The notes: generated by a model not told the origin, from the sequence alone. A stretch of DNA of 34,094 nt from Deltaproteobacteria bacterium (GCA_013140885.1 JABFSC010000032.1:1-34094), one strand, 5' to 3'. Counted from the stretch's first letter, positions 1 to 23,353 are shown. Translations and numbers: made by a program.

Positions 1-439
1 GCTTCCAGCTAATGCGTAGCCGGGCCAGGGCCAAACTCACACTTGGTCGCGAGACCTTGATGCCGTGCTCCGTCTCCAGGTAATGGCGCAAGAGCGGCGC
101 CGTCCACACGGTCGCCCGATACCCCACCTCCCGCGGGTCTTGGTCAATGAGCTGATCAATCAGGGGATCAATAATCTCCCGGGCGGTCCGGGGTCGACCG
201 CTCCGCAGACCATCCTCGAGCCGCCGGGCGATCTCCAGTCCTCGGCGCTCCTCAAACCGCGCACTCCAATTGAAAATCGTGCGCCGACTCACCCCCAGCC
301 GCTCGGCCACTTCGCGGGTACTTTCCCCTTCCTCGCGCCACAGCAAGGCTTGCGCGCGGCGCAGGGCTTTCCCATCAGCCGTGTGGGCTGCTACCTCTTC
401 CACGATCCTCCTCGCTCTCTTGGTGAGACTCCCTCTCAT
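1..439 (-). CDS. IS630-family transposase, N-terminal part (partial; ORF runs off the left edge of the window)
   Basis: Absent from the ORF track because it has no stop in the window. Minus-strand translation from ATG (complement of 437-439) stays open for 146 codons down to position 2: MRGSLTKRARRIVEEVAAHTADGKALRRAQALLWREEGESTREVAERLGVSRRTIFNWSARFEERRGLEIARRLEDGLRSGRPRTAREIIDPLIDQLIDQDPREVGYRATVWTAPLLRHYLETEHGIKVSRPSVSLALARLRISWK. It has two consecutive HTH modules (GESTREVAERLGVSRRTIFNW and WTAPLL..HGIKVSRPSVSLALARL), typical of IS630/Tc1-mariner-like bacterial transposase N-termini. AAGGAG (complement of 448-453) lies 8 nt upstream of the ATG. Confidence 0.75.
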   Translation of the reverse strand, partial: MRGSLTKRARRIVEEVAAHTADGKALRRAQALLWREEGESTREVAERLGVSRRTIFNWSARFEERRGLEIARRLEDGLRSGRPRTAREIIDPLIDQLIDQDPREVGYRATVWTAPLLRHYLETEHGIKVSRPSVSLALARLRISWK

Positions 440-782: not shown

Positions 783-2411
783 CTATAGCTTGACGAAGAG
801 GTCCTTCACCCCGTCACTCGTCAGCCGCGACACCGTGGTGATCTTGTCGCTAAACTCCTTGAGCGGCCCCAGCGAATTGGAGCCGACATCAATCAGGATG
901 GAAAACAACGAGAAGCCCATCGCCTCCTTGTCCGCCCGGAAATTGTTCGCCCACTCTGGACTCACCTGACATTCCCCGTCGGTGATAAAGACAATGTCCC
1001 CACGCTTGAACCGGGCCTGGCGTAAACAATCGAGTGCCGCATTGAGCGGCATCTCGAAGTCCGTACCTCCACCGGGGAAGTATTCCGCTAGTTTCATCAC
1101 CGTGCCCATGTCCACGCCGTACCGTTCGCGCGGATTTAAGTCGAAGGTCTGGAGCGGTGTCTCGGCGGACGAAAAACAGAGGACCCGAAACATGCGTCGC
1201 TGCCGCCGGGCGATCTCAAGTAAGGTCAGCGTCAGCGCTTTCGCCCAGATTTCCTTGTCTCCCATCATCGACGAGCTGCCATCCAAACAGACAACCACCG
1301 GACCCTTGCCTTTTTCCTCAATGCCTCGGAGTGAGTAGAGCAACAGCTCATTGTCGACAAACCGCCGGGCGAAATCTTTCCGCAACACTGGGTGATTGAG
1401 CGTCAACAGTTCATGGGGCAGCAAGCGGCTCACTTCACTGCCCATGCCCACCTCGAACATTTCCTCATTGGTGCGCTCGAAAATTTTGCGCCGCAGGGCT
1501 AGCGCGTGATCCTTCATGCGACCCACCATCTGCGCCAGTTTCTTGAGCTTCTCATTACCGGCGAGATGTTTGCCGAGTTCGATTTGCCGACCGGGAGCGG
1601 ATTTGCTGTCTCCACCCCCAAGCGCGCGACTCCAGGACTCCGCCTCTTGCGCGGCCTCGTCGAGGTTACGGGCCACCTTGAGCGCTTCGCCGCGAAAGCG
1701 TGTCTCGGCTTCTTGCTGGACCCGCGCCAGGTCGTCGCGCAGTTGCTTGGCTTGTTGTCGTAAGCGGGTCTCTTCCGCGCGCGCTTCACTGGCGAGTTTA
1801 TTCGCGGCTTGCTCCAAGAGGGCTTTCGTCTCCTTTGATAAGTCACTCCGTGACGAGTCACCCTGGTCAGCGAGTTCCTTGGCGATGTCCTTGGCGTTGT
1901 TCGCCTCGCTGATTTTCTCTTGGACGGTCTCTTCCTGCTTTTGCAGGTTCCACAGGTCGAGGAGATCACGCCGAGTGAGGGGTTTTTCCGCCTTGAGCAA
2001 GGAGAGCGCGCCCTCACCGAGTAGGACGGTTGCAAGCCCGGCCTTGCCCTCATCAAGGACCGTTGCCTCACGGAGGAGTTGCGCGAGGTCTCCCTGGTGC
2101 AGCCCAGCCAGCAAGACGCGGTTAAGCGCCGCGCTGGGAAGCACCATCTCTTCCGGGAAGAAGACGACGTTGTGCTTGAAGACAGCACAGAACAAGTCGA
2201 GCAGGAGGGAGTCGAAGCGGGGCACCAGCGCGCCGCCACTTTCTTCTATCTCACGCAGGGACGGAGAGTCTTCCCGGAGTTTCGCATACGCCGCCCGATC
2301 GTAGGCATCGCTCTCGATCCAGCAGGTCCGTTCTGGGATCGGCGCCGGAGGGGGGAGGATAAAGCGAGACTTCTTCTTCGCTGGTACGCGTTTGGGCATG
2401 GGAGTCCCCAT
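783..2411 (-). CDS. von Willebrand factor A (VWA) domain protein, ViaA/CoxE-like partner of a MoxR-class ATPase
   Basis: The track ORF is 783..2531, but its first 40 codons overlap the upstream gene. The ATG at complement 2409-2411 (MGTPMPKRVPAKKK...) lies 14 nt after that gene's stop. The C-terminal ~190 aa form a VWA fold with MIDAS DGSSSM, GGGTDF and FITDGE. The middle is a Glu/Lys/Ala/Arg-rich predicted coiled coil. Confidence 0.85.
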   Translation of the reverse strand: MGTPMPKRVPAKKKSRFILPPPAPIPERTCWIESDAYDRAAYAKLREDSPSLREIEESGGALVPRFDSLLLDLFCAVFKHNVVFFPEEMVLPSAALNRVLLAGLHQGDLAQLLREATVLDEGKAGLATVLLGEGALSLLKAEKPLTRRDLLDLWNLQKQEETVQEKISEANNAKDIAKELADQGDSSRSDLSKETKALLEQAANKLASEARAEETRLRQQAKQLRDDLARVQQEAETRFRGEALKVARNLDEAAQEAESWSRALGGGDSKSAPGRQIELGKHLAGNEKLKKLAQMVGRMKDHALALRRKIFERTNEEMFEVGMGSEVSRLLPHELLTLNHPVLRKDFARRFVDNELLLYSLRGIEEKGKGPVVVCLDGSSSMMGDKEIWAKALTLTLLEIARRQRRMFRVLCFSSAETPLQTFDLNPRERYGVDMGTVMKLAEYFPGGGTDFEMPLNAALDCLRQARFKRGDIVFITDGECQVSPEWANNFRADKEAMGFSLFSILIDVGSNSLGPLKEFSDKITTVSRLTSDGVKDLFVKL

Positions 2412-2424
2412 TGTCACACGATGC

Positions 2425-3528
2425 TCAGGCGTGAGCAGCGGCGATCTGCCACTCTCCACTCCGGCGCAACCGCACCTCTTCCGGATCGAAATGTTCGGGT
2501 AAGGCGTGGGCGCATCGCGCCGCATGCTCAAATGCTTGTTGGTCCTCGAGCCCCAGGGAATTCAACACGGGCTTATGGACCTTCTCTTCGTGAATTTTCT
2601 CGCTGTAGAGATTGGTGCGTTTCACGGACCGCAGATAGGTGCGCACCTTGGGAATGAAGCGTAACGCGGGCATCGAGAACCCAGCGAAGACTTGCGTCAG
2701 CGTATCGCACGTCAGTGACGGAAAATACTTGAGCGCGCTACGCACGATATGCAGAAAAAGACTGTGGTGGGCCAGTTCATCCTGGGTGACAAGCCGACAG
2801 GCTTCCGACGCGCCAATCTCGTAGCCCCGCTGCCGTTCTTCAGGCGTCGGCGCGGGCGGCAACCCATATTCCGCGCGCACGCGCGCGCGAACTTCCTGAT
2901 AATGATAGAAAGTCGCACGCTCCTGGATCATCGCGTAGATGGTCGTGGCCAGCGGGCTCTCGACCCCAGCATGTTGCTGCGGCTGCCAACGCGAGTCACG
3001 AATCTTGTCCAAATACTCGGTCAATTGCGTCTCCGTGCGGGCGTTGGAATGCTTGAGGAGTAGTTCCCACGCCACGCCGTGCCGCGCCTCCTCCGCTCCC
3101 CACTGGAGATGCAGGTTGCGTCGCGTACGGCTCTCACGAAAAGCGACGAGCCCTTCTTGCACATAGTCACTCACGAACTCCTCGACCCCCATGAACCCCT
3201 CAATGAGGTTGGCGGTGTCCTCACTGAGCAGATGGCCACGCGCGCGCATCTCCTCCACGGGCAAATCATGCCACGGCGACCAATTGCGTTGTTTCACCGC
3301 GCGTGTGAAATAGGCGAGGTAGTGTTCGTGGACGGCCTGGTCAAACGCGAGTTGCCGGGCCTCTGAAGTCCACGGGCCAGTCATAATGGTGACCGCTGGA
3401 GGAGTGGGGGAAACGGCGGAAGGGAGAGTTGATTTCATAGTATCCGTTCTGGAGCCCGAGGCTCCGGTAGGGGGACGGTCAATTTCATTCTGATGTATCA
3501 AGTAGGCTCCGAGTTCCCGGATGGGCAA
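2425..3528 (-). CDS. Acyl-ACP desaturase-like soluble diiron-carboxylate protein (ferritin-like fold)
   Basis: All ligand motifs of soluble acyl-ACP desaturases can be read: IEGFMGVEE, WGAEEARHG (ExxH), MIQERATFYHYQ (compare plant SFQERATFISH) and TQDELAHH (ExxH). Start is ambiguous. M1 at 3528 has AAGG 4 nt upstream. Alternatives are M31 (3438) and M49 (3384). Confidence 0.85.
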   Translation of the reverse strand: MPIRELGAYLIHQNEIDRPPTGASGSRTDTMKSTLPSAVSPTPPAVTIMTGPWTSEARQLAFDQAVHEHYLAYFTRAVKQRNWSPWHDLPVEEMRARGHLLSEDTANLIEGFMGVEEFVSDYVQEGLVAFRESRTRRNLHLQWGAEEARHGVAWELLLKHSNARTETQLTEYLDKIRDSRWQPQQHAGVESPLATTIYAMIQERATFYHYQEVRARVRAEYGLPPAPTPEERQRGYEIGASEACRLVTQDELAHHSLFLHIVRSALKYFPSLTCDTLTQVFAGFSMPALRFIPKVRTYLRSVKRTNLYSEKIHEEKVHKPVLNSLGLEDQQAFEHAARCAHALPEHFDPEEVRLRRSGEWQIAAAHA

Positions 3529-3553
3529 TTGCCTTAAGTTAGCGAGTTTCGAG

Positions 3554-3606
3554 TTTCAGGTTCCGAGTTCCCTCTCCCTGCTGGGAGAGGGTTAGGGTGA
3601 GGGGAA
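3554..3606. repeat. Repeat family A copy 1: REP-like hairpin element
   Basis: tttcaggttcc..ccctctccc tgct gggagaggg ttagggtgagggg. Perfect 9-bp stem (3570-3578 / 3583-3591) with a 4-nt loop. A second copy at 23308-23353 has the same stem and flanks. It lies in the gap between the ATPase stop and the diiron gene start. Confidence 0.85.
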
Positions 3607-3646
3607 TCAAGTGATCTTTTCCTTATTATGAGCCCACGTCGTGATC

Positions 3647-4765
3647 TCAGAACTTCGTCAACAACTGTTGTTGGATGCTCTGGACTTCCTGGCGGATGGT
3701 TTCGACTTTTCCTAATGGTCGGCCGAGGTCTTCCACCTTCTGACTGATGTCCTCAATTTTCTTCAAGATATGGCGAATCTTGGTGTGCGCTTCGATCACC
3801 GCGCGGGCCTGCTGTTCCTTGCTGTTCCATTGGCGTTCGGCATAGTCCCGCAGCTCACGAGTCTGGAACAGCAGCTCCTGCACTTCGTCTTCATAGCCAT
3901 GGATAAGCCCATGAATGACAGTGCGCACCTCACCCTGCTCGCCGGGGTCTCTCCACAGAATATGTTCAAGGAAAAAGAGGTCCGACTCGCGCACCGTGGC
4001 TCTACCGTGCAGATAGGCCAACGCCTTGAGCACGCTGAGACTCTGACGATAGCGGCGATCCGACGCGACGATATTTTTCTTTTGTAACTCGCGTCGGATA
4101 TTGCCAATTTCATTGAGAATCGGGTCTGGCAGGGCCACCGCTCGCACCTCGGCCTGCATCTGCTGCAATTCGGCGAGCGTCATGGTGGTACGCTCGCTGG
4201 GCTCCGTGGCCAGCAGCATTTTGAGGAAGCGAAATTCCTCGTTGATATAACCCACGACAAAGCGCAGCAGAAACCGATCATACAACGCTAGCAGTTCATC
4301 ATCCTCAGGCAGTTCATTACTAGCGCCGAACAGGGTCAGCAGCGGGACCCCGGTGACTTGGCGGCCATTATGAAACAGCCGTTCGTTGATGATGGTGAGA
4401 ATGGCATTGAGGATCGACGAACTCGCCTTAAAGACTTCATCGAGAAACGCGATGTGCGCCTCTGGCAGTTTGTGGGCGGTGACGCGACGATAGTCGTCGG
4501 CTTCGAGCGCCTTGAGACTGACGGCGCCAAACAACTCTTCGGGTGTGGTGAACTTGGTCAACAGCCATTGGAAGTAGGTGGCGCCAGTGATGCGGCGACA
4601 GAGTTCATCCGCGAGCATGGATTTCGCGGTGCCCGGTGGGCCAACGATCAATAGGTGTTGCGCGGCCAGAAGCGCGGCAAGGGCACCATCAATCAACTCG
4701 GTGCGTTCGAGGAACATCTGTTGAAGTTCCTCGCGAATAGCGCGCAATTTCTCTTGAGGGGTCAT
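3647..4765 (-). CDS. MoxR-class AAA+ ATPase, RavA-like
   Basis: Walker A LIVGPPGTAKS, Walker B AHIAFLDEVFKASSSILNAILTIINERLFHNG (very RavA-like), sensor-1 FGASNELP, and LALYDRFLLRF. The track ORF extends to 4927, but that extension reads through an intergenic repeat (SFFAHSPIHPLAHSSF). The likely start is MTPQEKLRAIREEL at complement 4763-4765. Confidence 0.9.
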   Translation of the reverse strand: MTPQEKLRAIREELQQMFLERTELIDGALAALLAAQHLLIVGPPGTAKSMLADELCRRITGATYFQWLLTKFTTPEELFGAVSLKALEADDYRRVTAHKLPEAHIAFLDEVFKASSSILNAILTIINERLFHNGRQVTGVPLLTLFGASNELPEDDELLALYDRFLLRFVVGYINEEFRFLKMLLATEPSERTTMTLAELQQMQAEVRAVALPDPILNEIGNIRRELQKKNIVASDRRYRQSLSVLKALAYLHGRATVRESDLFFLEHILWRDPGEQGEVRTVIHGLIHGYEDEVQELLFQTRELRDYAERQWNSKEQQARAVIEAHTKIRHILKKIEDISQKVEDLGRPLGKVETIRQEVQSIQQQLLTKF

Positions 4766-4895: not shown

Positions 4896-4992
4896 TTCAC
4901 TTGCATGACCGGCAAGAGCATTGTCACTATCGTGGTCCATCTATTCCTGCTACGAGCGCTATTATCTGTTCGCTGCTCTTAGGAGGATGCCG

Positions 4993-6825
4993 ATGCTACT
5001 TTCCCAGTATCGCAGGTTCATCACCCTCTCACTCTTCTTCTTTACCGTTTGGATACCACCAGTCAGAGCGCAGCTCACGCTGGTCAAAGACATTAACCTC
5101 CTTCCTCCGAGCTCCGCTCCTAACGAGCTCGTAGCCATTGGGAACATTGTCTACTTTGTAGCGGAGACTATCGACACCGGTGCGGAGCTCTGGCGGAGTG
5201 ATGGGACGGCGGCGGGCACGGTCCTGGTCAAGGATATCCGGCCTGGCAGCGTCGATTCCCTTCCTCTCAACCTGACCGCCGTCAACGGGGTGCTGTATTT
5301 TACGGCCATTAATAACGCAACCGGCAGGGAGCTCTGGCGCAGTGACGGGACAGCGGTGGGCACGGTCCTGGTTAAGGATATCCGGCCTGGCCGTGGTAGC
5401 TCTACTCCGGTCAACCTGACCGCCGTCAACGGGGTGCTGTATTTTACCGCGAATAATGGGATCACCGGCGTTGAGTTGTGGCGGAGTAACGGGACGGTGG
5501 CGGGCACGGTCTTAGTCAATGACATCCGGCCTGGCCGTGGCAGCTCTACTCCGGTCAACCTGACCGCCGTCAACGGGGTGCTGTATTTTACCGCCATTAA
5601 TAATGCAACCGGCAGAGAGCTCTGGCGCAGTGATGGGACGGCGGTGGGCACGGTCTTACTCAAGGACATCCAACCTGGCAGTGGCAGCTCCAGTCCTGTC
5701 AACCTGACCGCCGTCAACGGGGTGCTGTATTTTAGCGCGAATAATGGGGTCACTGGCGAGGAACTGTGGCGCAGTAACGGGACGGCGGTGGGCACGGTCT
5801 TAGTCAATGACATCCGACCTGGCAGTGGCAGCTCCAGTCCTGTCAACCTGACCGCCGTCAACGGGGTGCTGTATTTTGTCGCGAATAATGGGGTCACCGG
5901 CGCGGAACTGTGGCGCAGTAACGGGACGGCGACGGGCACGGTCTTGGTTAAGGACATCGCGCTTGGCAGCGCTGGCGCTAGTCCTCGTTCCCTGACCAAC
6001 GTCAACGGAGCGCTGTATTTTGTCGCGGATGATGGCGTCACGGGCGCGGAACTGTGGCGGAGTAATGGGACGGCGACGGGCACGGTCCTGGTTAAGGACA
6101 TCCTGCCTGGTAGTGACGGCTCCTTTTCTTTTCTTCCCGACCCCCTCCCTTTCCTGACCGCCGTCAACGGAGTGCTGTATTTTGTCGCGGACAATGGCGT
6201 CACCGGCGCGGAGCTCTGGCGCAGTGACGGGACGGCAGCGGGCACGGTCCTGGTTAAGGACATCCTGCCTGGCAGTGGATGGGCTCTTCCTTTCAATCTG
6301 ACCAACGTCAACGGGGTACTGTATTTTATCGCGGATAATGGCGTCACCGGCTACGAGCTCTGGCGGAGTGATGGGACGGCGGCGGGCACGGTCTTGGTCA
6401 AGGACATTTTGCCTGGCGGTGGGAGCTCTGCTCCTGAATTTCTGACCAACGTCAACGGGGTGCTGTACTTTATCGCGGATAATGGTGTCACGGGCTATGA
6501 GCTGTGGCGCAGTGACGGGACGGCGGCGGGCACGGTCTTGGTCAAAGACATTTGGCCTGGCAGTGGCGGCTCTGCTCCTTTCGAGCTGACCAACGTCAAT
6601 GGGGTGCTGTATTTTAGCGCGTTTGATGACGTCACTGGCACCGAGGTCTGGCGCAGTGACGGGACAGCGGCGGGCACGTTCCTGGTCCAGAACATCAGGC
6701 CTGGTACTGGCGGCTCTATTCCTGCCTTCCTGACCAACGTCAACGGGGTGCTGTATTTTAGCGCGGATGATGGCAGATCCGGGTTCGAGTTATGGCGAAG
6801 TGGGCCGTTCAGGGTTCGGTGGTAA
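4993..6825 (+). CDS. Secreted ELWxxDGT-repeat protein (predicted beta-propeller-like repeat protein)
   Basis: Eleven complete units plus one truncated ~48-aa unit of the form LT.VNGVLYF.A....TG.ELWRSDGTA.GTVLVKDI.PG..S.P, which is the pattern of the TIGRFAMs ELWxxDGT repeat. AGGAGG at 4981-4986 sits 6 nt before the ATG at 4993. The N-terminus MLLSQYRRFITLSLFFFTVWIPPVRAQ looks like a signal peptide. The track ORF (4921) is an upstream extension. Confidence 0.9.
   Translation: MLLSQYRRFITLSLFFFTVWIPPVRAQLTLVKDINLLPPSSAPNELVAIGNIVYFVAETIDTGAELWRSDGTAAGTVLVKDIRPGSVDSLPLNLTAVNGVLYFTAINNATGRELWRSDGTAVGTVLVKDIRPGRGSSTPVNLTAVNGVLYFTANNGITGVELWRSNGTVAGTVLVNDIRPGRGSSTPVNLTAVNGVLYFTAINNATGRELWRSDGTAVGTVLLKDIQPGSGSSSPVNLTAVNGVLYFSANNGVTGEELWRSNGTAVGTVLVNDIRPGSGSSSPVNLTAVNGVLYFVANNGVTGAELWRSNGTATGTVLVKDIALGSAGASPRSLTNVNGALYFVADDGVTGAELWRSNGTATGTVLVKDILPGSDGSFSFLPDPLPFLTAVNGVLYFVADNGVTGAELWRSDGTAAGTVLVKDILPGSGWALPFNLTNVNGVLYFIADNGVTGYELWRSDGTAAGTVLVKDILPGGGSSAPEFLTNVNGVLYFIADNGVTGYELWRSDGTAAGTVLVKDIWPGSGGSAPFELTNVNGVLYFSAFDDVTGTEVWRSDGTAAGTFLVQNIRPGTGGSIPAFLTNVNGVLYFSADDGRSGFELWRSGPFRVRW
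5125..6810 (+). repeat. In-frame tandem coding repeats, period 144 bp (one 162-bp unit)
   Basis: Long near-perfect repeats are present. 5380-5450 matches 5523-5593 with 1 mismatch in ~71 nt. 5674-5733 matches 5818-5877 with 60/60 identity. The gtcaac(c)tgacc(g/a)(c/a)cgtcaacgg(g/a)gtgctgtatttt block recurs throughout. Confidence 0.95.
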
Positions 6826-6988: not shown

Positions 6989-8200
6989 ATGGCTGGAGCA
7001 CTCGATGGGATCAAAATTCTGGAGCTGACTCGTGTGGGCCCTGGGGCTTTTTGCACGATGATGTTGGCTGACATGGGCGCGGAAGTGTTGAAGATCGAAG
7101 CGCCACCGTCAGGCAAGCTGGCGGGCTCCGGCGCGTCGCCGAAACCCGAAGACGCGCGCAAACTCGCCACCAGTTTTACCAATCGCAATAAGAAGAGCAT
7201 GACCCTCAACCTCAAGGACCCGGCTGGACAAGCCATCTTGCAGGACTTGGCGAAGAGCTACGATGTGTTGGTTGAGGGCTTCCGCCCAGGTGTGATGCAA
7301 CGGCTCGGTGGCGATTACGAAACCCTGAAGAAACTGAATCCGCGCTTGATTTACTGCGCGTTGAGTGGCTACGGCCAGGATGGCCCTTATCGTGATTATC
7401 CCGCGCACGACTTGAACTACCTTTCTCTCGCTGGGATGGCGAACCTCATTGGTCCGCCCGAAGGGCCACCGTCCATCCCGCTCAATGTTGTGGCGGATTA
7501 CGCTGGCGCTTCGATGCACGGGGTGACTGGCATCATGTTCGCCCTGTTCGCGCGTGAGCGGACGGGCAAAGGCCAGTTTGTCGATGTGTCTTATCTCGAC
7601 ACCACGATTTCGTTGTTGGCGGCGACGCCGAACGTGCGCGATTATTTCTCGGACGGTGTTATGCCTGGACGCGGCAAGGGCGTGTTCGGCGGCGGGTACG
7701 CCTATTACGGCTTCTACGAAACCAAGGATCACAAGATGATTACCATTGGCTGCACCGAGCCGTGGTTGTGGGAGAATCTGTGTGACGCCATCAATCGCCC
7801 CGACCTGAAAGATTGCGGCATGAAAGCGGGCGATTTCTCCGGCTATACCAACGACCGGCACGTCTACGCGCGAGCCGAGTTACAGAAAATCTTTCTCACC
7901 AAAACGCGTGAAGAGTGGTTCGAGATGCTGACCAAAGCTGATGTCTGTGTCGGCAAGGTGTATGACGTGCCCGAAGTGTTTCAAGATCCGCAAGTGAAGC
8001 ATCGCCAGATGGCGGTGGAGTTAGACCATCCGGTCGCGGGCAAAGTGATGCAAGCGGGCATCGCGGTGAAGCTCTCCGATACGCCAGGCTCGATTCGCTC
8101 ATTCGCTCCAGCATTGGGCGCGAGCACGGACGAGGTGTTGCGCGCCATCGGCTATAACGAGGCGAAGATCGCGGAACTGCGGGAGAAACGAGTAGTGTGA
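6989..8200 (+). CDS. Family III CoA-transferase (CaiB/BaiF / alpha-methylacyl-CoA racemase-like)
   Basis: N-terminus LDGIKILELTRVGPGAFCTMMLADMGAEVLKIE is the hallmark family III start. VVADYAGASMHG...ALFARERTGKGQFVDVS contains the catalytic Asp region. AAGGAGG at 6979-6985 precedes the ATG. Confidence 0.9.
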   Translation: MAGALDGIKILELTRVGPGAFCTMMLADMGAEVLKIEAPPSGKLAGSGASPKPEDARKLATSFTNRNKKSMTLNLKDPAGQAILQDLAKSYDVLVEGFRPGVMQRLGGDYETLKKLNPRLIYCALSGYGQDGPYRDYPAHDLNYLSLAGMANLIGPPEGPPSIPLNVVADYAGASMHGVTGIMFALFARERTGKGQFVDVSYLDTTISLLAATPNVRDYFSDGVMPGRGKGVFGGGYAYYGFYETKDHKMITIGCTEPWLWENLCDAINRPDLKDCGMKAGDFSGYTNDRHVYARAELQKIFLTKTREEWFEMLTKADVCVGKVYDVPEVFQDPQVKHRQMAVELDHPVAGKVMQAGIAVKLSDTPGSIRSFAPALGASTDEVLRAIGYNEAKIAELREKRVV

Positions 8201-8295: not shown

Positions 8296-9654
8296 ATGCG
8301 CCTCTCCTTCGACCTTGGCACCCTGGTCCTGCGCGATCCGCCAGCCGGGTTTCAGCCACCATCTTGCTTTCAGTGGGATGGGCGCGTGGATCGCTGGCGC
8401 GCGCAGGCGTACCACTACCGCGCCATCGTTGAACAATTCAAGACCGACCGCATCCAGTACGAGAACGCCGCTCCCGCCTATCACACCCTCAAACTCGCCA
8501 GCCGTCTGACCCAAACCCCACATCCATTTCAGACTGAAGCCCTCGCGGCGTGGAACAGCGCCGGTCGCCGCGGCGTGATTGTGCTGCCGACCGGGGCCGG
8601 CAAAAGCTACGTCGGGCAGATGGCGATTGAAACAGTGCAACGCGGCACGCTTGTCGTCGCACCCACGATTGACCTGATGAACCAATGGTATGACCTGCTC
8701 TGCGCCGCGTTTGACGCGCAGGTCGGGTTGATTGGCGGCGGTTATTATGAGCCGCAAGATTTGACGGTCACCACTTATGACAGCGCGTACAGTCATGCGG
8801 ACCGTCTCGGCAATCGCTGGGGCTTGGTGATCTTCGACGAATGTCACCACTTGCCCGGTGAGATGTATAGCCACGCCGCCGAGATGTGTCTGGCGCCATA
8901 TCGCCTGGGGCTCACGGCCACGCCGGACCGCACCGATGGCCGCCACGCCTTGCTCGATCACCTGATTGGCCCGCAAGTCTACGTCAAAGGGATCAAAGAC
9001 CTCGCCGGCGATTACTTGGCGGACTATGTGGTGGAGAGAATCAAAGTCACCCTGACACCAGACGAGGAAGCCGAGTACAAACGCACGCGCGGCACCTTCT
9101 CGAATTTCGTCATTGACCACGGGATCGTGTTGGATGGCCTCGCGGGGTGGCACCACTTTGTGCGCGAAAGCGCGAAGAGTACCCAAGGCCGCCAAGCGAT
9201 GCTCGCGCACCAACGCTCCAAGAAACTCGCGCTCGGCACCTCGGCCAAATTGCGCACGCTTGATTTTCTCCTCAAGAAACATGCGCGCGAGCGGGCCATC
9301 ATCTTCACCAGCGACAACGACACGGTCTATGCCATTTCCGCCGCGTTTCTGATTCCGGCGATTACACATCAAACGCCGACTAAAGAGCGCAAGGAGATTC
9401 TCGAAGGCTTCAATCGCGGCGACTATCTCGCGCTGGCCACGTCCAAGGTGCTCAACGAAGGCGTCAACGTGCCAGAAGCGAGCGTGGCGATTGTCTTGTC
9501 TGGCTCCGGCTCGATTCGCGAGCACGTGCAACGCCTGGGGCGCATCTTGCGCAAACGGGAAGGGAAGCAAGCGATTCTTTACGAGGTCATCACCGCTGGG
9601 ACCGTCGAAGAGCGCATCAGCCAACGACGACGACAGCATGATGCGTATCAGTAG
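8296..9654 (+). CDS. XPB/Rad25(ERCC3)-like superfamily 2 DNA helicase
   Basis: Motif I VLPTGAGKS, motif II LVIFDECHHLP, motif III GLTATPDRTDGRH (position of the XPB RED motif, here RTD), and motif VI EHVQRLGRILRK. The N-terminal ~70 aa (MRLSFDLGTLVL...WDGRVDRWRAQAYHY) resembles the XPB damage-recognition-type domain. The 8230..9639 minus ORF is a GC-rich shadow. Confidence 0.85.
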   Translation: MRLSFDLGTLVLRDPPAGFQPPSCFQWDGRVDRWRAQAYHYRAIVEQFKTDRIQYENAAPAYHTLKLASRLTQTPHPFQTEALAAWNSAGRRGVIVLPTGAGKSYVGQMAIETVQRGTLVVAPTIDLMNQWYDLLCAAFDAQVGLIGGGYYEPQDLTVTTYDSAYSHADRLGNRWGLVIFDECHHLPGEMYSHAAEMCLAPYRLGLTATPDRTDGRHALLDHLIGPQVYVKGIKDLAGDYLADYVVERIKVTLTPDEEAEYKRTRGTFSNFVIDHGIVLDGLAGWHHFVRESAKSTQGRQAMLAHQRSKKLALGTSAKLRTLDFLLKKHARERAIIFTSDNDTVYAISAAFLIPAITHQTPTKERKEILEGFNRGDYLALATSKVLNEGVNVPEASVAIVLSGSGSIREHVQRLGRILRKREGKQAILYEVITAGTVEERISQRRRQHDAYQ

Positions 9655-10368: not shown

Positions 10369-11853
10369 ATGACAGAGCACCAGAACGGGACAATCGGGGT
10401 TCCAGGCACGAACGAACGGCTGGCTCTTGCTGATGTCGAGGAACGACTCCGGCAGGTGCGCGGGCGCTGGAATTTTCATACCGCGCAGCATCATCTGTAT
10501 CGCCTGGGTACTGCGCTCGCTCTCGGCACCGCGCTCCTTATTGTCTGTACCTTCATATTGTCTCCCCTGCTGTTTACCCTCCTCTCTTGGCCAGTTCTGC
10601 TCCTGCTCGCCTTCTGTTTTCTCTTTTTTATTCGCTGTGGAGTTGGCGACTGGGCGGACCTCAATACCATCGCGCGTCGCGTGGACGCGCAGGTGGGCTT
10701 GAAAGAGCGACTCGCGACCCTCGTAGCGCAGCTCACCAGTGGTGTGATCGGCAAACCGTCCCCTTCGCCCCTGTGGCCACATCTCCTCGCCGAGAATACC
10801 CGACTCCTTGACGAATGGGCGGTGAAAAAGGTTGCGCCCTCGCGCATTCCGTGGAGCATGGTGCCATTTCTGCTCGCGCTGCTGCTGCTGGTGTTCACCG
10901 CTTCTATCCCCATGCTTTCGGAACGATCCGTCCAAGCGCCGTTCTCGCCGGAGAATCTCAGCACGGTCTTGGCCGATCTCCCCAACCGCGCCGGTGAGCT
11001 GCTGGATCGGCAACTCTCTTTACTGCCCGATACGCCGAAACAGTGGGGTGGTGGGACTCTATTCGACACGCCACAAAACGACGGAAAAAAACCCCAAGAC
11101 GCGCTTGAACAGGGCAATCCTGAAGATCAACAGCAACCTGAGAATAGTGACAACACCCCCGCGCAGTCGCTCGCCTCCTTGCCGCAAGCGTTGCAAGAGA
11201 AGATTCGTCAGGCGCTGCAAGGGCTGCCAGATAAAACCCCGAAACCGCCAACACCAGAAGACCAAACGGCGGAACAAGATCCGCGCTTGGCGCTGCAAGC
11301 GAACAAGGAGCAGAAAACTCCGGGCGCGCGGATGGAAGGCCAAAGCCCGGAATCAGGTGGGCAGTTGCCGAATAATTCACCGGGACGCGGCGACAAGAAG
11401 AAAGATGGTCCCACCAGCGGCAAAAACTCGGGTTCAGCCATGTCCATGCCTTCGCTCGGCACTGGCCTGCAACAACTTGAACATGCGCAGCTTGAACGGA
11501 AAAATGCCAAAGGGGCTTTTCAACCCGATAGCCCACAGATGCCGGGACGGGGCGGACAAGCCGGAGAAGGCGGTCCAGGCGCTGGCAGTGGCACCGACCC
11601 CCGACTCTATGGTGAGGAAAAGATCACCGGCAAGGGTGGCCAGACTTTTCAGCTCTCGCTGGAAACCACCCATAAGAAGAGCCATGAAGGGGAGACGGAC
11701 CCCAACGAAGAGGACACCGGCGGCATTATCGAGAAATCGACCAAGGGCCTCAATCAAGAGCAGTCGTTTGATGATGCGATTCGCAAGTCGCAAGTGCCCG
11801 CGGAGTACGAGGATATTGTGAAACGTTTATTCGTGCGAGGAGAATCACGGTGA
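10369..11853 (+). CDS. Membrane protein with long Pro/Gln/Lys/Gly-rich low-complexity region; first gene of the Bat-like operon
   Basis: It has a TM hairpin (LGTALALGTALLIVCTFILSPLLFTLLSWPVLLLLAFCFLFFI), a third TM (MVPFLLALLLLVFTASIPML) and ~250 aa of low-complexity sequence. It ends in a conserved-looking tail, SQVPAEYEDIVKRLFVRGE. The stop overlaps the moxR start (GTGA at 11850-11853). No clear SD is visible. Confidence 0.6.
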   Translation: MTEHQNGTIGVPGTNERLALADVEERLRQVRGRWNFHTAQHHLYRLGTALALGTALLIVCTFILSPLLFTLLSWPVLLLLAFCFLFFIRCGVGDWADLNTIARRVDAQVGLKERLATLVAQLTSGVIGKPSPSPLWPHLLAENTRLLDEWAVKKVAPSRIPWSMVPFLLALLLLVFTASIPMLSERSVQAPFSPENLSTVLADLPNRAGELLDRQLSLLPDTPKQWGGGTLFDTPQNDGKKPQDALEQGNPEDQQQPENSDNTPAQSLASLPQALQEKIRQALQGLPDKTPKPPTPEDQTAEQDPRLALQANKEQKTPGARMEGQSPESGGQLPNNSPGRGDKKKDGPTSGKNSGSAMSMPSLGTGLQQLEHAQLERKNAKGAFQPDSPQMPGRGGQAGEGGPGAGSGTDPRLYGEEKITGKGGQTFQLSLETTHKKSHEGETDPNEEDTGGIIEKSTKGLNQEQSFDDAIRKSQVPAEYEDIVKRLFVRGESR

Positions 11854-12899
11854 GTGAAGCACCAGCTACCCAAATGATCGCCGATTTTCAACAAACCGTC
11901 CGCCGCATCGAGACGGAACTGGCCAAGGCCGTGGTCGGTCACGAAGACCTGGTCCGCAATATCTTGATCGCCTTTTTCGCGGGCGGTCATGTGTTGATCG
12001 AGGGCGTGCCCGGCACCGGCAAAACCTTGATCGTGCGGTCGCTCGCCGATGTGTTCAATCTGAGCTTCAACCGCATCCAGTTCACCGTCGATTTGATGCC
12101 CGCCGATATTACTGGCACCCGCATGGTGATGGACCGCGACGAGGGGCGGCGCGAATTCGTTTTCGTCGAAGGGCCGATCTTCTCCCACGTGTTGCTGGCG
12201 GACGAGATCAACCGCTCCACACCCAAGACTCAGGCCGCGCTCTTGGAGGCGATGGCCGAACAACAAGTGACGGTCGCGGGCACCACCTACCGGCTCGCGC
12301 CACCGTTCTTCGTGCTCGCCACGCTCAATCCCATTGAGATGGAAGGGACCTATCCACTGCCGGAAGCGCAGCTCGACCGCTTTTTCTTCAAGGTGCGCCT
12401 CACCTATCCGACGCATAACGAAATTCAGCGTATTATCAACACGACGACCACCACGGTCGTGCCCGACCTCCACCCGGTGTTCGTGCACGCCGAAGCGCCG
12501 GAGAAGGTCATGGCCCTGCGCACGCTGGTGCGCGAAGTGATGGTCGCCCCGCAGATCGAGGAGTACATCGCCGCGCTGATTCATGCCACGATCCCGGCGG
12601 GGGCCAAGTATGTCAACGCCGCGGACACCGCGCGGACCATGCTGCCGAAGGATGACTTCGTCAATCGTTACGTCTCGTTTGGCTCCAGCCCGCGGGGAGG
12701 GCAGACGCTGCTGCTGGGGGCGAAGGTGGCGGCGCTGCTCAATGGGCGCGCCAATGTCAGTTATGAGGATGTGGACCGCGTGGCCGTGCCCGCCTTGCAA
12801 CATCGCCTGGTGCTCAACTTCGCGGCGGAGGCGGAAAATATCGATCCCGCGATCATCGTCGAGCGTATCCTGCAGTCCGCCCGCAAATTGCGCCGCTAG
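11850..12899 (+). CDS. moxR: MoxR-family AAA+ ATPase (AAA_3 type)
   Basis: VVGHEDLVRNILIAFFAGGHVLIEGVPGTGKTLIVRSLA (Walker A), NRIQFTVDLMPADITGT, LLADEINRSTPKTQAALLEAMAEQQVT (Walker B), FFVLATLNPIEMEGTYPLPEAQLDRF, and GSSPRGGQTLLLGAK. GTG start overlaps the upstream stop. Confidence 0.95.
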   Translation: MSEAPATQMIADFQQTVRRIETELAKAVVGHEDLVRNILIAFFAGGHVLIEGVPGTGKTLIVRSLADVFNLSFNRIQFTVDLMPADITGTRMVMDRDEGRREFVFVEGPIFSHVLLADEINRSTPKTQAALLEAMAEQQVTVAGTTYRLAPPFFVLATLNPIEMEGTYPLPEAQLDRFFFKVRLTYPTHNEIQRIINTTTTTVVPDLHPVFVHAEAPEKVMALRTLVREVMVAPQIEEYIAALIHATIPAGAKYVNAADTARTMLPKDDFVNRYVSFGSSPRGGQTLLLGAKVAALLNGRANVSYEDVDRVAVPALQHRLVLNFAAEAENIDPAIIVERILQSARKLRR

Positions 12900-12925
12900 G
12901 CCGAAGAGTTGATGGGGCTGACATC

Positions 12926-13834
12926 GTGGCGCTGACTGATTTTACCTTCTTTCGCCAACTCGACCGCCTGCGCTTGCGGATACGGACCGCGCGTGGCCAC
13001 CGGCCTGGCGAAACCCTGATCCCTCGCGCGACCCAAGCCTGGGGCGTTGAGTTCGAGTCCTATAAGGATTATGTCCCCGGCGATGACTTCCGCTACGTCG
13101 ATTGGAACGCCGTGGGGCGACTCGATCAACTCGTGGTGCGCACCTTCACCGCCGAGCGCGAGATTCCCGTCCATCTCTTCCTCGACACCAGCGCTTCGAT
13201 GGGGGCACCGGCGATAGATCACAAGTTCACGTTCGCCACGGACCTAGTGTCCGCGCTGGGGTACGTGGTGCTCAACAACAACGACCCCCTGCACCTGGTC
13301 GCGCTGGCCGCCCCCAAGTCCGGGCACCAGCCCTTTCGTCCGGCACCCATGTTGCGCCATCGCAGTCAGTTCTCTCGCCTGCCGGCGTTTTTACAGACCC
13401 TCATCCCTGATGGAAAAACCTACCTCCGTGAGACCGTGCGCGCCTACATTGAACAGACCCACGAGCCCGGGGTCGCCACCCTCGTGTCGGATTTCCTCGT
13501 GGAGCCCGCCCAATACGAAGGCGCGCTGACGTTGTTGCAAGCGCGAGGCTACGAGGTGCGCGCGGTGCACATCGTCGGCGCGGCGGAACTCGCGCCGGAG
13601 CGGCTCTTTCGGCAAGGCAAGCTCTATGATGTCGAGGAGCGGACGGAGCGCTGGGTCTCGCTCAGTCGCGCGCATCTCCAACAGTATCAAGAAGCGATGC
13701 AGGCGCACCTTGATGGCCTCCAACAGTTCTGCCATCGTCACCAGATGCTCTACACGCGGGTGACGACGGACACGCCGCTGACGAAAATCATGACCGAGCA
13801 GTTCACCAAGGCCGGGCTACTCGCCTTTCGATAG
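12926..13834 (+). CDS. DUF58 domain protein (MoxR-associated, VWA-like fold)
   Basis: Signature YKDYVPGDDFRYVDWNAVGRLDQLVVRTFTAERE followed by LFLDTSASM. It sits in the canonical position after moxR. GTG start. Confidence 0.9.
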   Translation: MALTDFTFFRQLDRLRLRIRTARGHRPGETLIPRATQAWGVEFESYKDYVPGDDFRYVDWNAVGRLDQLVVRTFTAEREIPVHLFLDTSASMGAPAIDHKFTFATDLVSALGYVVLNNNDPLHLVALAAPKSGHQPFRPAPMLRHRSQFSRLPAFLQTLIPDGKTYLRETVRAYIEQTHEPGVATLVSDFLVEPAQYEGALTLLQARGYEVRAVHIVGAAELAPERLFRQGKLYDVEERTERWVSLSRAHLQQYQEAMQAHLDGLQQFCHRHQMLYTRVTTDTPLTKIMTEQFTKAGLLAFR

Positions 13835-13846
13835 AAAGTACCAACT

Positions 13847-15733
13847 ATGGGCATTCTCAATCCGGCCGCGCTGCCGTTCCTCACCTTGCTTGGCATTCTC
13901 GTCCTGATTTATTTGCGCGAGCGCTGGCGACAACGGATCGAAGTCCCCTCATTCCTCTTGTGGCGGGCGGTGGCGGAAGATAAGGCGCGCATTCGCCGCT
14001 TTCTCCCCGACCTGCTGTTCTTCGCGCAAGCCCTCCTGTTGCTGCTCCTGATTGGCGGACTCCTGCGCCCCTATCGCTCGGAGACCGTCACCGAGACGCA
14101 TGGCAACCGCCATATCTTGGTGGTGGACACCTCCGCCAGCATGCAGGCACGCGAGGGGCGGACCCGCCGGTTCGATCTCGCGTTGGATGAAGCCAAACAG
14201 GTGGTGCGGTCGCTGGGGCCACTGGATGAATCCATGGTGATTAGCATCAGTACCCGCCCGCAAGTCGTGAGCGGCCTCACCAGCGACCACCTGCTGGTGC
14301 AGCATCTGTTGGAGGCGTTGCAACCCGTGGACACCAGCACCAATCTTGATCTCGGTGTCGAGCTGGCCTTGGCGCAGCGGGGGCGGGATGGTCGCCGGGG
14401 GCAGGTGCATGTGTTCACCGACCTCCCACGGAGCGCGCTCAGTCTCTCGCAAGATCAGGTGCGAGAGTTGGCGTATCACCGAGTCGGCACGAACGATGAC
14501 AACGTTGCCTTGGCCGCGTTCCATCTCTACCAGAACCCGTTTCAGACCTACTCGCAGGCGCAGGCGTATATGCTGGTGCGCAACTACGCCTCGCGGGTCA
14601 AGAAGGGAACCCTGACGTTGCAACTGGACGATCAGCCGGTGTTCAAGAAGGAGTTCACGTTGGCGGCGCGCGAAGCGGCGTCGTTCTCGATGAAAGGGTT
14701 TGAGCACGCGGGGAAACTGGTGGCGAAGATTGAACCGAGTGACGCGCTTGCGCTCGATAATCAGGCGCTGTCGTGGCTGGCGGAACGCTCGTTACGGCGG
14801 CTGGTGGTGGTATCTCCCGTGAAAAGTCTGCACGAGGAACTGACCCGCGTGAGTGAGTCGATCCCCGGCCTCGCGATCACCGTCATGACCCCCGAAAAAT
14901 TCTCACCCGAAAGTCTGAACCCCCAGGATGTGGCTTTGTTCCATCAGTTCGTTCCGAGCGTGACGGTGGCGGTGAACAGTCTCTATGTGTTTCCCCCGCC
15001 GGATAATCCGCTGTTCCCCGTGATCGCGGAAGCCGCCGACCTCAGCATTCTCGACTGGCGCCAAGAGCACGATCTGCTGCGCAACCTGCGGTATGTGGAA
15101 GCGTTGCCGCTGAAGAAGGCGCGGGTGCTGGCGCTGCCGCCGTGGGCGCAGGTGCTGATCTCCTCGCGCACCAAGACCAGTGAGGTGCCGCTGGCGCTGA
15201 CCGGCGAGAAGGATGGCCACCGGGTGGTGTGTCTCGCTTTTGATCTCAACAAAGGGAACCTCACCAATTCCGACAACCTGACGTTATTGCTGTTGTTCCT
15301 CAATACCTTGCGGTGGCTCCTGCCCCCGGACCCAGCGCTGCCGCAACTGGTCTCGACGGGCGAGGCATTTTTCCTTCCCCCCGGCAGTACACCTGATTCC
15401 CTGCGGCTTCGTCCGCCACGGGGCGAGGAGCAGTCGGTTGAAACGGACATGGTGGAGGTCGATCAAATCGGGGAATACCACCTGGATGGCAGCCGCTACC
15501 ACGGCATCCTGTACGCCAACTTGTTCGATGAAGCTGAATCCGACATCGCCCGCCGCGAGGAGCAGGAGTCCGCCCCGGCGCAACCGCGCATCGCGCCCGC
15601 CGCCGCGCCACAAGAGGTGACTCGCGAGGTGCCGCGCGAGTTTGGTCGGTCGCTGTATTACGGGGCCGCGCTCATTCTCACCCTCGAATGGCTCTATGCC
15701 TTATGGCGCTATTCCCGCATGAGGAGCGCATGA
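13847..15733 (+). CDS. BatA-like membrane VWA protein (N-terminal double-TM aerotolerance domain plus VWA)
   Basis: N-terminus MGILNPAALPFLTLLGILVLIYLRERWRQRIEVPSFLLW plus a second TM gives the BatA_N-type double-TM anchor. VWA with MIDAS VVDTSASM. C-terminal TM SLYYGAALILTLEWLYALW. Confidence 0.85.
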   Translation: MGILNPAALPFLTLLGILVLIYLRERWRQRIEVPSFLLWRAVAEDKARIRRFLPDLLFFAQALLLLLLIGGLLRPYRSETVTETHGNRHILVVDTSASMQAREGRTRRFDLALDEAKQVVRSLGPLDESMVISISTRPQVVSGLTSDHLLVQHLLEALQPVDTSTNLDLGVELALAQRGRDGRRGQVHVFTDLPRSALSLSQDQVRELAYHRVGTNDDNVALAAFHLYQNPFQTYSQAQAYMLVRNYASRVKKGTLTLQLDDQPVFKKEFTLAAREAASFSMKGFEHAGKLVAKIEPSDALALDNQALSWLAERSLRRLVVVSPVKSLHEELTRVSESIPGLAITVMTPEKFSPESLNPQDVALFHQFVPSVTVAVNSLYVFPPPDNPLFPVIAEAADLSILDWRQEHDLLRNLRYVEALPLKKARVLALPPWAQVLISSRTKTSEVPLALTGEKDGHRVVCLAFDLNKGNLTNSDNLTLLLLFLNTLRWLLPPDPALPQLVSTGEAFFLPPGSTPDSLRLRPPRGEEQSVETDMVEVDQIGEYHLDGSRYHGILYANLFDEAESDIARREEQESAPAQPRIAPAAAPQEVTREVPREFGRSLYYGAALILTLEWLYALWRYSRMRSA

Positions 15734-23307: not shown

Positions 23308-23353
23308 TTTCAGGTTCCCTCTCCCGGCTGGGAGAGGGCTAAGGTGAAGGGGA
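23308..23353. repeat. Repeat family A copy 2: REP-like hairpin element
   Basis: tttcaggtt ccctctccc ggct gggagaggg ctaaggtgaagggga. The 9-bp stem (23317-23325 / 23330-23338) is identical to the copy at 3570-3591. It again lies between two co-directional minus-strand genes. Confidence 0.85.

Follow-up and report, generated by a model that had tools for sequence, protein, structure and literature searches.

When a metalloenzyme gene is enclosed by the genes for a MoxR-class AAA+ ATPase and a von Willebrand factor A (VWA) protein, the question arises whether the enclosed protein is the client of the pair. NorQ/NorD, CbbQ/CbbO and CoxD/CoxE are MoxR/VWA maturases or activases that are encoded beside their metalloenzyme client. 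In the contig of a Deltaproteobacteria bacterium analysed here (GCA_013140885.1 JABFSC010000032.1:1-34094; this whole stretch of 34,094 nucleotides is referred to as the window), a gene encoding a diiron-carboxylate protein lies between the genes of a RavA-like ATPase and a ViaA-like VWA protein, and a first-pass annotation had proposed the diiron protein as the likely client of an iron-loading or remodelling system. Comparison with related genomes points to another explanation: the diiron gene is probably a passenger in a conserved operon, a case of lineage-specific operon hitch-hiking, and not the dedicated client of the pair.

Organisation of the three-gene locus

All three co-directional minus-strand genes that had been annotated were confirmed as real in an open reading frame (ORF) check of the window, and their families hold as RavA-like, acyl-acyl carrier protein (ACP)-desaturase-like and ViaA-like. 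The gene encoding the ATPase of 372 amino acids comes first (3647..4765, minus strand); the ATG at 4765 was taken as its start because the orthologues likewise comprise 372 amino acids. A spacer of 208 nt (3439..3646) separates it from the gene of the diiron protein (2425..3438, minus strand, 337 amino acids), which is followed by the VWA gene (783..2411, minus strand). The spacer had been given as 118 nt, but homologues start the diiron gene at the ATG at 3438 and not at the TTG at 3528, which leads to the corrected value. For the second gap, 14 nt had been counted from the diiron stop to a VWA start at 2411. The two genes are indeed close, with 13 nt between them if the ATG at 2411 is used and 25 nt if translation begins at the second ATG at 2399 (M5); the latter is the likely start since homologues start there and a GGGGA is found upstream. 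The ratios of nonsynonymous to synonymous substitutions (dN/dS), calculated against the trio loci L002 and L003, were 0.03-0.06 (ATPase), 0.05-0.07 (VWA gene) and 0.11-0.12 (diiron gene). All values are low and, therefore, the three genes are functional, with purifying selection acting on each of them. Reads bearing the window sequence were found in biofilter and drinking-water metagenome runs.

Linkage of the diiron gene and the ATPase/VWA pair in other genomes

One genome per GTDB species was scanned for the diiron family, which gave 110 loci. The best 80 were examined for neighbours, with an ATPase or VWA match counted at E 1e-5 and up to 8 kb on each side; many of the loci compared in this work are metagenome-assembled genomes (MAGs) or short contigs. 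The 80 loci belong to Binatia, to many Chloroflexota orders including the cultured Herpetosiphon, to Rubrobacter-like MAGs and to others. ATPase and/or VWA genes were found beside the diiron gene in nine of them (L001-L008 and L037), always in the order and orientation of the window. No such match was present within up to 8 kb on each side of the diiron gene in the other 71 loci, which include many complete Binatia chromosomes and the cultured Herpetosiphon, and clustering of the neighbours at the diiron loci revealed no conserved gene beyond lineage-level synteny. In another clade of Binatia, the diiron gene is a lone plus-strand gene amid minus-strand genes; the neighbours of this stand-alone site (c1-c8, c16 and c28), taken as markers of the ancestral location, had no match in the window or in the trio loci. 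Two complete chromosomes carry a stand-alone diiron gene far away from the pair, at a distance of ~1.4 Mb in OZ252051.1 and ~0.58 Mb in OZ243979.1.

Two stand-alone diiron genes (L018 and L033) were placed beside the embedded clade in a first tree, with just 31% bootstrap later, and lie in unrelated contexts; they might be a relocated or ancestral copy of the pair-only lineages. Furthermore, several public MAG records with a Binatia-type locus (L002, L008, L023, L029, L037, L043 and L058) bear the name 'Klebsiella pneumoniae' or 'uncultured Enterobacteriaceae bacterium', which is evidently a wrong taxonomy.

The pair itself was followed by looking up VWA orthologues (61-79% identity) on long contigs. 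Outside the trio loci, the genes of the ATPase (372-390 amino acids) and the VWA protein (529-578 amino acids) were directly adjacent in seven of seven look-ups, with gaps of 14-92 nt. The upstream order of the window, with a divergent CoA-transferase, an XPB-type helicase and an APH-family kinase, is kept in five of the seven; L083 and L084 differ. In the window, the family III CoA-transferase (6989..8200, plus strand; Pfam CoA_transf_3, 3e-105) is encoded divergently from the ATPase, and the XPB/ERCC3-type helicase (8296..9654, plus strand; Pfam XPB_DRD, ResIII and ERCC3_RAD25_C) serves as second synteny marker. The CoA-transferase is divergent from the ATPase in L081, L082, L085, L086 and L167-L169 as well, and the helicase is found at the corresponding position in L081, L082, L085, L086 and L167. 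Since the CoA-transferase is conserved as divergent neighbour, the window locus is orthologous to the pair-only loci.

A metagenome scan with the VWA alignment yielded 80 loci, of which 13 were uninformative, their upstream DNA being too short. Among the 67 informative loci the pair was adjacent in 61 (gap -58 to +244 nt) and formed a trio with the diiron gene in six. The expectation that RavA/ViaA-type genes are normally adjacent is borne out by these loci together with the seven look-ups. Across 96 loci the pair is a two-gene unit whose flanks are variable and mostly on the opposite strand, and a conserved third partner was not found. By gene order, the ATPase and VWA genes make up a MoxR/VWA module of the RavA/ViaA type that consists of two genes, is self-contained and is conserved in the Binatia core chromosome. 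The diiron gene is stand-alone in nearly all lineages. The proposed role of the diiron protein as client does not agree with these counts: the trio is seen in nine of 80 diiron loci, in six of 67 informative pair loci and on one further contig of 101 kb (P0127), and a linkage of client gene and pair across lineages, of the kind known for NorQD, CbbQO and CoxDE, was not found.

Evolutionary history of the insertion

Trees were calculated by neighbour-joining on protein distances, with 300 bootstraps for the diiron tree. The embedded diiron genes (n = 15) were monophyletic at 95% bootstrap and nested within Binatia sequences, and their internal groups mirrored the tree of the concatenated ATPase and VWA proteins. 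Therefore, a single insertion is indicated, with vertical inheritance afterwards. Multiple independent insertions, which would be a sign of coupling, were considered and rejected because of the monophyly of the embedded genes.

In the ATPase/VWA tree, the pair-only loci were nested among trio loci. The trio L006 grouped with the pair L095 (100% bootstrap), the pair L088 with a group made up of L087, L003, L002 and the window (100%), and the pair-only loci L091 and L094 with the trio L004 (65%). The clade of all nested trio and pair groups was supported by 90%, and the pair-only loci L083 and L084 were its sister (100%). In addition, the trio contig P0127 and the pair contig P0145 have their upstream flank in common (CBS, ECH, APH, XPB helicase, CoA-transferase and ATPase); they differ at the inserted gene and diverge 3' of the VWA gene. 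The nesting of pair-only among trio loci and the difference between P0127 and P0145 at the inserted gene indicate that on at least three occasions the embedded diiron gene was lost or gave way through recombination, and that the pair persisted. The first-pass annotation had rightly seen the diiron gene as an insertion into an otherwise adjacent pair, as is evident from the pair-only loci of the relatives. Its adjacency to the pair in related genomes, tabulated as had been suggested there, is largely not conserved and belongs to the one Binatia sub-clade with this history.

The spacer in front of the VWA gene has also received other DNA. In pair-only loci the distance between ATPase and VWA genes amounts to 2-17 nt, or to ~100 nt occupied by a palindromic element of another kind, with arms of the CAGCTCTCAGC...GCTGAAAGCTG type (L088:1203-1308, L091:3890-3989, L094:3873-3989 and L103:3879-3995) and, therefore, the spacer was hit independently by another small repeat. 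Neither an ATPase nor a diiron gene was found in the ~700-900 nt 5' of the VWA gene in L089:115-835, L090:1-907 and L099:1-689. Two small unrelated ORFs precede the VWA gene in L089 and L090, and the C-terminal end of a TPR protein is encoded 5' of it in L090 and L099. By their VWA genes, L089 and L090 belong to the cluster of the trio locus L006, and the ATPase/VWA pair may be split in the strains of L089, L090 and L099. A HicAB label for the small ORFs of L089 and L090 was dropped, as there was only a sub-threshold HicB-like match (E 0.006) for one ORF and nothing for the other. When the three spacer states were aligned, homology began at the VWA start codon. As judged from these alignments, the spacer 5' of the VWA gene is a site that tolerates insertions, be it of elements like repetitive extragenic palindromes (REP) or miniature inverted-repeat transposable elements (MITE), of other small ORFs or of the diiron gene.

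The REP-like element and probable co-transcription of the locus

In the trio loci of relatives, the spacer between ATPase and diiron genes measures 50-92 nt (L003-L008) and the gap between diiron and VWA genes 1-22 nt; L002 has an ATPase-diiron spacer of 257 nt. Measured against these lengths, the 208-nt spacer of the window has been widened by a dispersed REP-like element. A hairpin at 3570-3591 belongs to this element of ~80 nt (~3541-3619), whose arms are CCCTCACCCTAACCCTCTCCC-loop-GGGAGAGGG, and a second copy is found in the window at 23317-23350 (hairpin 23317-23338). In the biofilter metagenome, the bin 3469-3619 was covered to a depth of 969 versus ~15 in the flanks, a ~60-fold excess, with many different flanking sequences. 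The palindrome is present at many unrelated sites, as expected of a dispersed repeat, and the earlier description of the hairpin as REP-like is corroborated by the second copy, the excess depth and the diverse 'loose ends'. Besides the window, L002 carries the element, but it is missing from the same spacer in L003 (87% identical) and in L004-L008. It resembles REP/MITE-like elements in that its hairpin is short, rich in GC and located between genes; unlike in these, no REP-associated tyrosine transposase (RAYT) or other transposase was linked to the window element. This distribution marks the hairpin element as a recent REP/MITE-like insertion and not as a conserved regulatory feature.

The possibility that the hairpin at 3570-3591 is an efficient terminator, which the annotation had raised itself, was checked, and a conserved terminator was rejected: the hairpin has no T-tract, it was not flagged by a terminator scan and the element is missing in close relatives. 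A scan of the ATPase-diiron spacer of the window detected neither a sigma-70-like promoter nor a terminator consensus, Binatia promoters being uncharacterised. Short spacers, the lack of a terminator signal and the recent arrival of the REP element make it probable that the diiron gene of the window is co-transcribed with the pair. Co-transcription would lead to co-expression of the diiron gene and the pair.

Properties of the ATPase and the VWA protein

The ATPase matched the Pfam models bpMoxR (7e-57, 192 bits), AAA_5 (2e-27) and AAA_lid_8 (7e-22). RavA of E. coli was the nearest solved structure (E 5e-54), with residues 5-303 of the ATPase aligned to residues 9-317 of RavA. The Walker A and Walker B motifs read in the first pass, GPPGTAKS and FLDEVF, were both located (4642-4619 and 4447-4430), and GASNE and YDRF are present as well. 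Hence both Walker motifs, sensor 1 and the arginine finger are in place, and together with a lid of the RavA type they make up a RavA AAA+ module. The NCBIfam model of RavA was matched with 1e-63 and 216 bits over model positions 9-338 of 498, at a cut-off of 681, and no match was obtained past residue ~303 in Pfam and PDB searches. The ATPase consists of the AAA+ module, the lid and a C-terminal tail of ~70 amino acids. It is not a full-length equivalent of RavA, since the C-terminal bundle and the LARA domain are missing. In RavA, the LARA domain binds LdcI.

In the ViaA-like protein, a helical N-terminal region is followed by a long stretch predicted to be helical and by a VWA domain at the C-terminus (Pfam VWA_2, 1.7e-7). 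The MIDAS, or metal ion-dependent adhesion site, assigned to it earlier is complete, with D377, S379, S381, T450 and D478 invariant in the homologue alignment. As is typical of ViaA, the VWA domain is C-terminal and has a DxSxS...T...D MIDAS, and in the relatives its gene as a rule directly follows that of the ATPase; in the window the diiron gene interrupts this adjacency. The NCBIfam model of ViaA was matched in the middle region and in the VWA domain with 8.5e-23, but the 81 bits are below the equivalog cut-off of 500. A PDB sequence search gave no relative, and an AlphaFold2 (AF2) model based on an alignment of 11 sequences reached a mean predicted local distance difference test (pLDDT) of 49 and was left out of the fold search as too poor. 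No difference at the domain level was found between VWA proteins of trio and pair-only loci, and neither the Pfam scan nor the homologue alignment revealed fused effector domains.

The pair is similar to RavA-ViaA of E. coli in its AAA+ module, in the RavA-type lid, in the match of the partner to the ViaA model and in its ancestral unit, a two-gene operon with the ATPase followed by the VWA gene. It differs in equivalog scores far under both cut-offs, in an ATPase of 372 amino acids that matches RavA over the AAA+ module alone and in its host, here a Binatia bacterium of drinking-water biofilters. Binatia, an uncultured class, thus has a RavA/ViaA-like pair without LARA domain among its conserved core modules.

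The diiron protein and its family

The diiron protein passed the gathering score of Pfam FA_desaturase_2 (PF03405), although modestly (36.2 bits, cut-off 22.7). The annotation had described a complete ligand set and, indeed, all six ligands (E86, E117, H120, E173, E221 and H224) were confirmed and are invariant in 20 homologues; they lie in the motifs GVEEF, EEARH, QERATF and DELAHH. An AF2 model was obtained with a pLDDT of 82 and a predicted template modelling (pTM) score of 0.83, and a Foldseek search with this model returned the castor and ivy acyl-ACP desaturases as best folds (TM ~0.63, 19% identity). Pfam score, ligands and fold place the protein in the acyl-ACP desaturase family. With the castor delta-9 and ivy delta-4 enzymes and DesA2 of M. 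tuberculosis it shares the predicted fold (TM 0.6-0.65) and the six ligands in equivalent motifs (TEE/VEE, EENRH/EEARH, QERAT and DEKRH/DELAH), in addition to the Pfam family. It is unlike them in its identity of just 18-20%, in a PDB sequence-profile search that gave an E of only ~0.08 to desaturases and in the lack of a matching NCBIfam model; its family is a separate clade of Binatia, Chloroflexota and a few Actinomycetota-like MAGs. On the strength of sequence and structural model, the protein is predicted to be a diiron-carboxylate enzyme that activates O2 and has a desaturase-like fold, most probably a desaturase or oxidase acting on a lipid-like substrate. Its family branches deeply among the acyl-ACP-desaturase-like proteins and is uncharacterised. 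This branch is flagged here with ~110 species-level loci in Binatia and Chloroflexota, and it could be studied in a cultured host such as Herpetosiphon. A literature search found no paper on Binatia or Herpetosiphon desaturases of this type.

Passenger or client of the pair

The course of events that emerges from the relatives is the following. In the ancestor of one Binatia sub-clade, a single insertion brought the diiron gene into the short spacer of the ATPase-VWA pair, and the gene was then passed on vertically with its flanks; later it was dropped or replaced in several lines and retained in others, and the pair stayed. On this account, the probable co-transcription in the window would be hitch-hiking and not evidence for a maturase-client system. 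If so, a gene sandwiched in a chaperone operon can stem from one insertion into a permissive spacer and not from functional coupling. Several observations weigh against a passenger. The embedded arrangement is old, with diiron proteins diverged to ~59% identity and synonymous sites saturated, and such a long-kept embedding is compatible with selection for co-expression. Pair and diiron gene were both present in the two other Binatia genomes in which this was checkable. Moreover, several deeper nodes of the neighbour-joining trees have a support of 44-75%, and the number of losses is uncertain because it is based on neighbour-joining trees with weak deep nodes. Finally, MoxR/VWA pairs serve metalloenzymes, and NorQD inserts iron (PMC9976466, PMC13036017).

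This precedent also speaks for the proposal that iron loading, remodelling or repair of the diiron protein is the task of the RavA/ViaA-like pair, and that the trio is an operon capture which exposes a link otherwise acting in trans. The trio operon is tight and long-lived with purifying selection on all genes, the MIDAS of the VWA protein is intact and invariant, and pair and diiron gene coexist in the same Binatia genomes. Like NorQ/NorD, CbbQ/CbbO and CoxD/CoxE, the operon of the window combines a MoxR-class ATPase and a VWA protein having an intact MIDAS with a metalloenzyme gene. By analogy with NorQD and CbbQO, the ATPase of the pair would form a hexameric ring, and the VWA partner would dock on this ring and grip an acidic residue of its target with the MIDAS (PMC9976466, PMC13036017). 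Nevertheless, we regard a client role of the diiron protein as doubtful. The embedded gene has a single evolutionary origin without independent recurrence and was lost repeatedly, leaving the pair intact; in 71 of 80 diiron loci, whole phyla among them, an ATPase or VWA match is lacking nearby; in 96 loci, no third partner is conserved with the pair; VWA proteins of trio and pair-only loci are alike at the domain level, and the insertion site accepted unrelated DNA as well. Unlike in the three maturase systems, linkage in the window is a matter of one sub-clade, one origin and repeated loss, and the ATPase, unlike NorQ and CbbQ, is on the RavA branch. That the Binatia pair is a maturation or repair machine for the diiron enzyme which works in trans in most Binatia, the trio being an operon capture, is unlikely; the pair would then open the four-helix bundle for iron loading or remove a mis-metallated or oxidised cofactor. 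If true, soluble diiron oxygenases would join the short list of MoxR/VWA clients, and the locus would be the first case of a soluble diiron-carboxylate enzyme served by a MoxR/VWA system and would provide a concrete client for a RavA-type ATPase, which would help to explain the role of an ATPase that is debated even in E. coli. The annotation had noted such a pairing as not known to be described and, indeed, the literature was searched without finding a link between MoxR/VWA proteins and a diiron-carboxylate client.

Two further explanations concern the locus as a whole. The diiron gene could be an independent neighbour whose own promoter lies in the 50-208-nt spacer and whose transcription is separate from that of the ATPase, so that the arrangement would be without regulatory meaning. 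This would suit the finding that the diiron gene is in all cases preceded by a spacer of 50 nt or more, whereas the ATPase-VWA gap of pair-only loci can be 2-17 nt or overlapping, and a structured REP-like element occupies the spacer in the window. However, the VWA gene would then need read-through from the diiron gene across a gap of 1-25 nt, and the spacer contains no sigma-70-like promoter or terminator consensus as far as such signals can be recognised with Binatia promoters uncharacterised; we consider an independent neighbour quite unlikely. A MoxR-vWA 'ternary' conflict or defence system, with the diiron protein or a tandem-repeat protein as third component, was brought up by the strong match of the ATPase to bpMoxR (192 bits), a model named for such systems, and by the possible beta-propeller repeat protein encoded next to the ATPase. 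The described systems require a VMAP, iSTAND or similar third protein and have variable vWA effectors and a mobile neighbourhood (Kaur et al. 2020, PMC7159879), none of which was found here. None of the four proteins had a PADLOC match, the VWA protein is without fused effector domains, the pair is syntenic in the Binatia core chromosome and not mobile, the relatives have no repeat protein and the ATPase aligns best to RavA. A defence or conflict function is very improbable and was rejected on the PADLOC result, the lack of effector domains and the stable synteny.

Neighbouring genes in the window

The gene between the ATPase and the CoA-transferase (4921..6825, plus strand) encodes a tandem-repeat protein with ~11 'ELWRSDGT' units of 48 amino acids ('ELWRSDGTAAGTVLVKDI..PG..'), corresponding to 10.9 copies of 144 nt in Tandem Repeats Finder. 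Its Pfam matches are weak only: PQQ_2, which is of the beta-propeller type and has no separate stretch passing, and NDUF_B12, which is likely spurious. No such gene was found at the corresponding position in pair-only loci, in which nothing lies between the ATPase and the CoA-transferase facing it. By this comparison of gene order, it is a further lineage-specific insertion at the locus.

On the other side, just downstream of the VWA gene, an IS630-like transposase fragment (2-439, minus strand) runs off the start of the window; it covers the N-terminal helix-turn-helix region (HTH_23, HTH_29, HTH_32 and HTH_33) that is typical of the IS630 family, and is likewise a lineage-specific insertion at the locus. 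Small ORFs of clusters c11 and c20 recur just 3' of the VWA gene in several relatives (L007:6861-7175 and L099:2603-2950, and likewise in L089, L098, L105, L107 and L124); by eye, they look like a toxin-antitoxin pair of the nucleotidyltransferase/HEPN (MNT/DUF86-like) kind. The window also encodes another MoxR system, unrelated to the first, at 11850-18372 on the plus strand. It is a Bat (aerotolerance)-like operon and comprises an MRP-type AAA_3 MoxR ATPase (11850-12899), a DUF58 protein (12926-13834), a protein with BatA-N and VWA domains (13847-15733) and a large VWA/GATase1-like protein (15688-18372).

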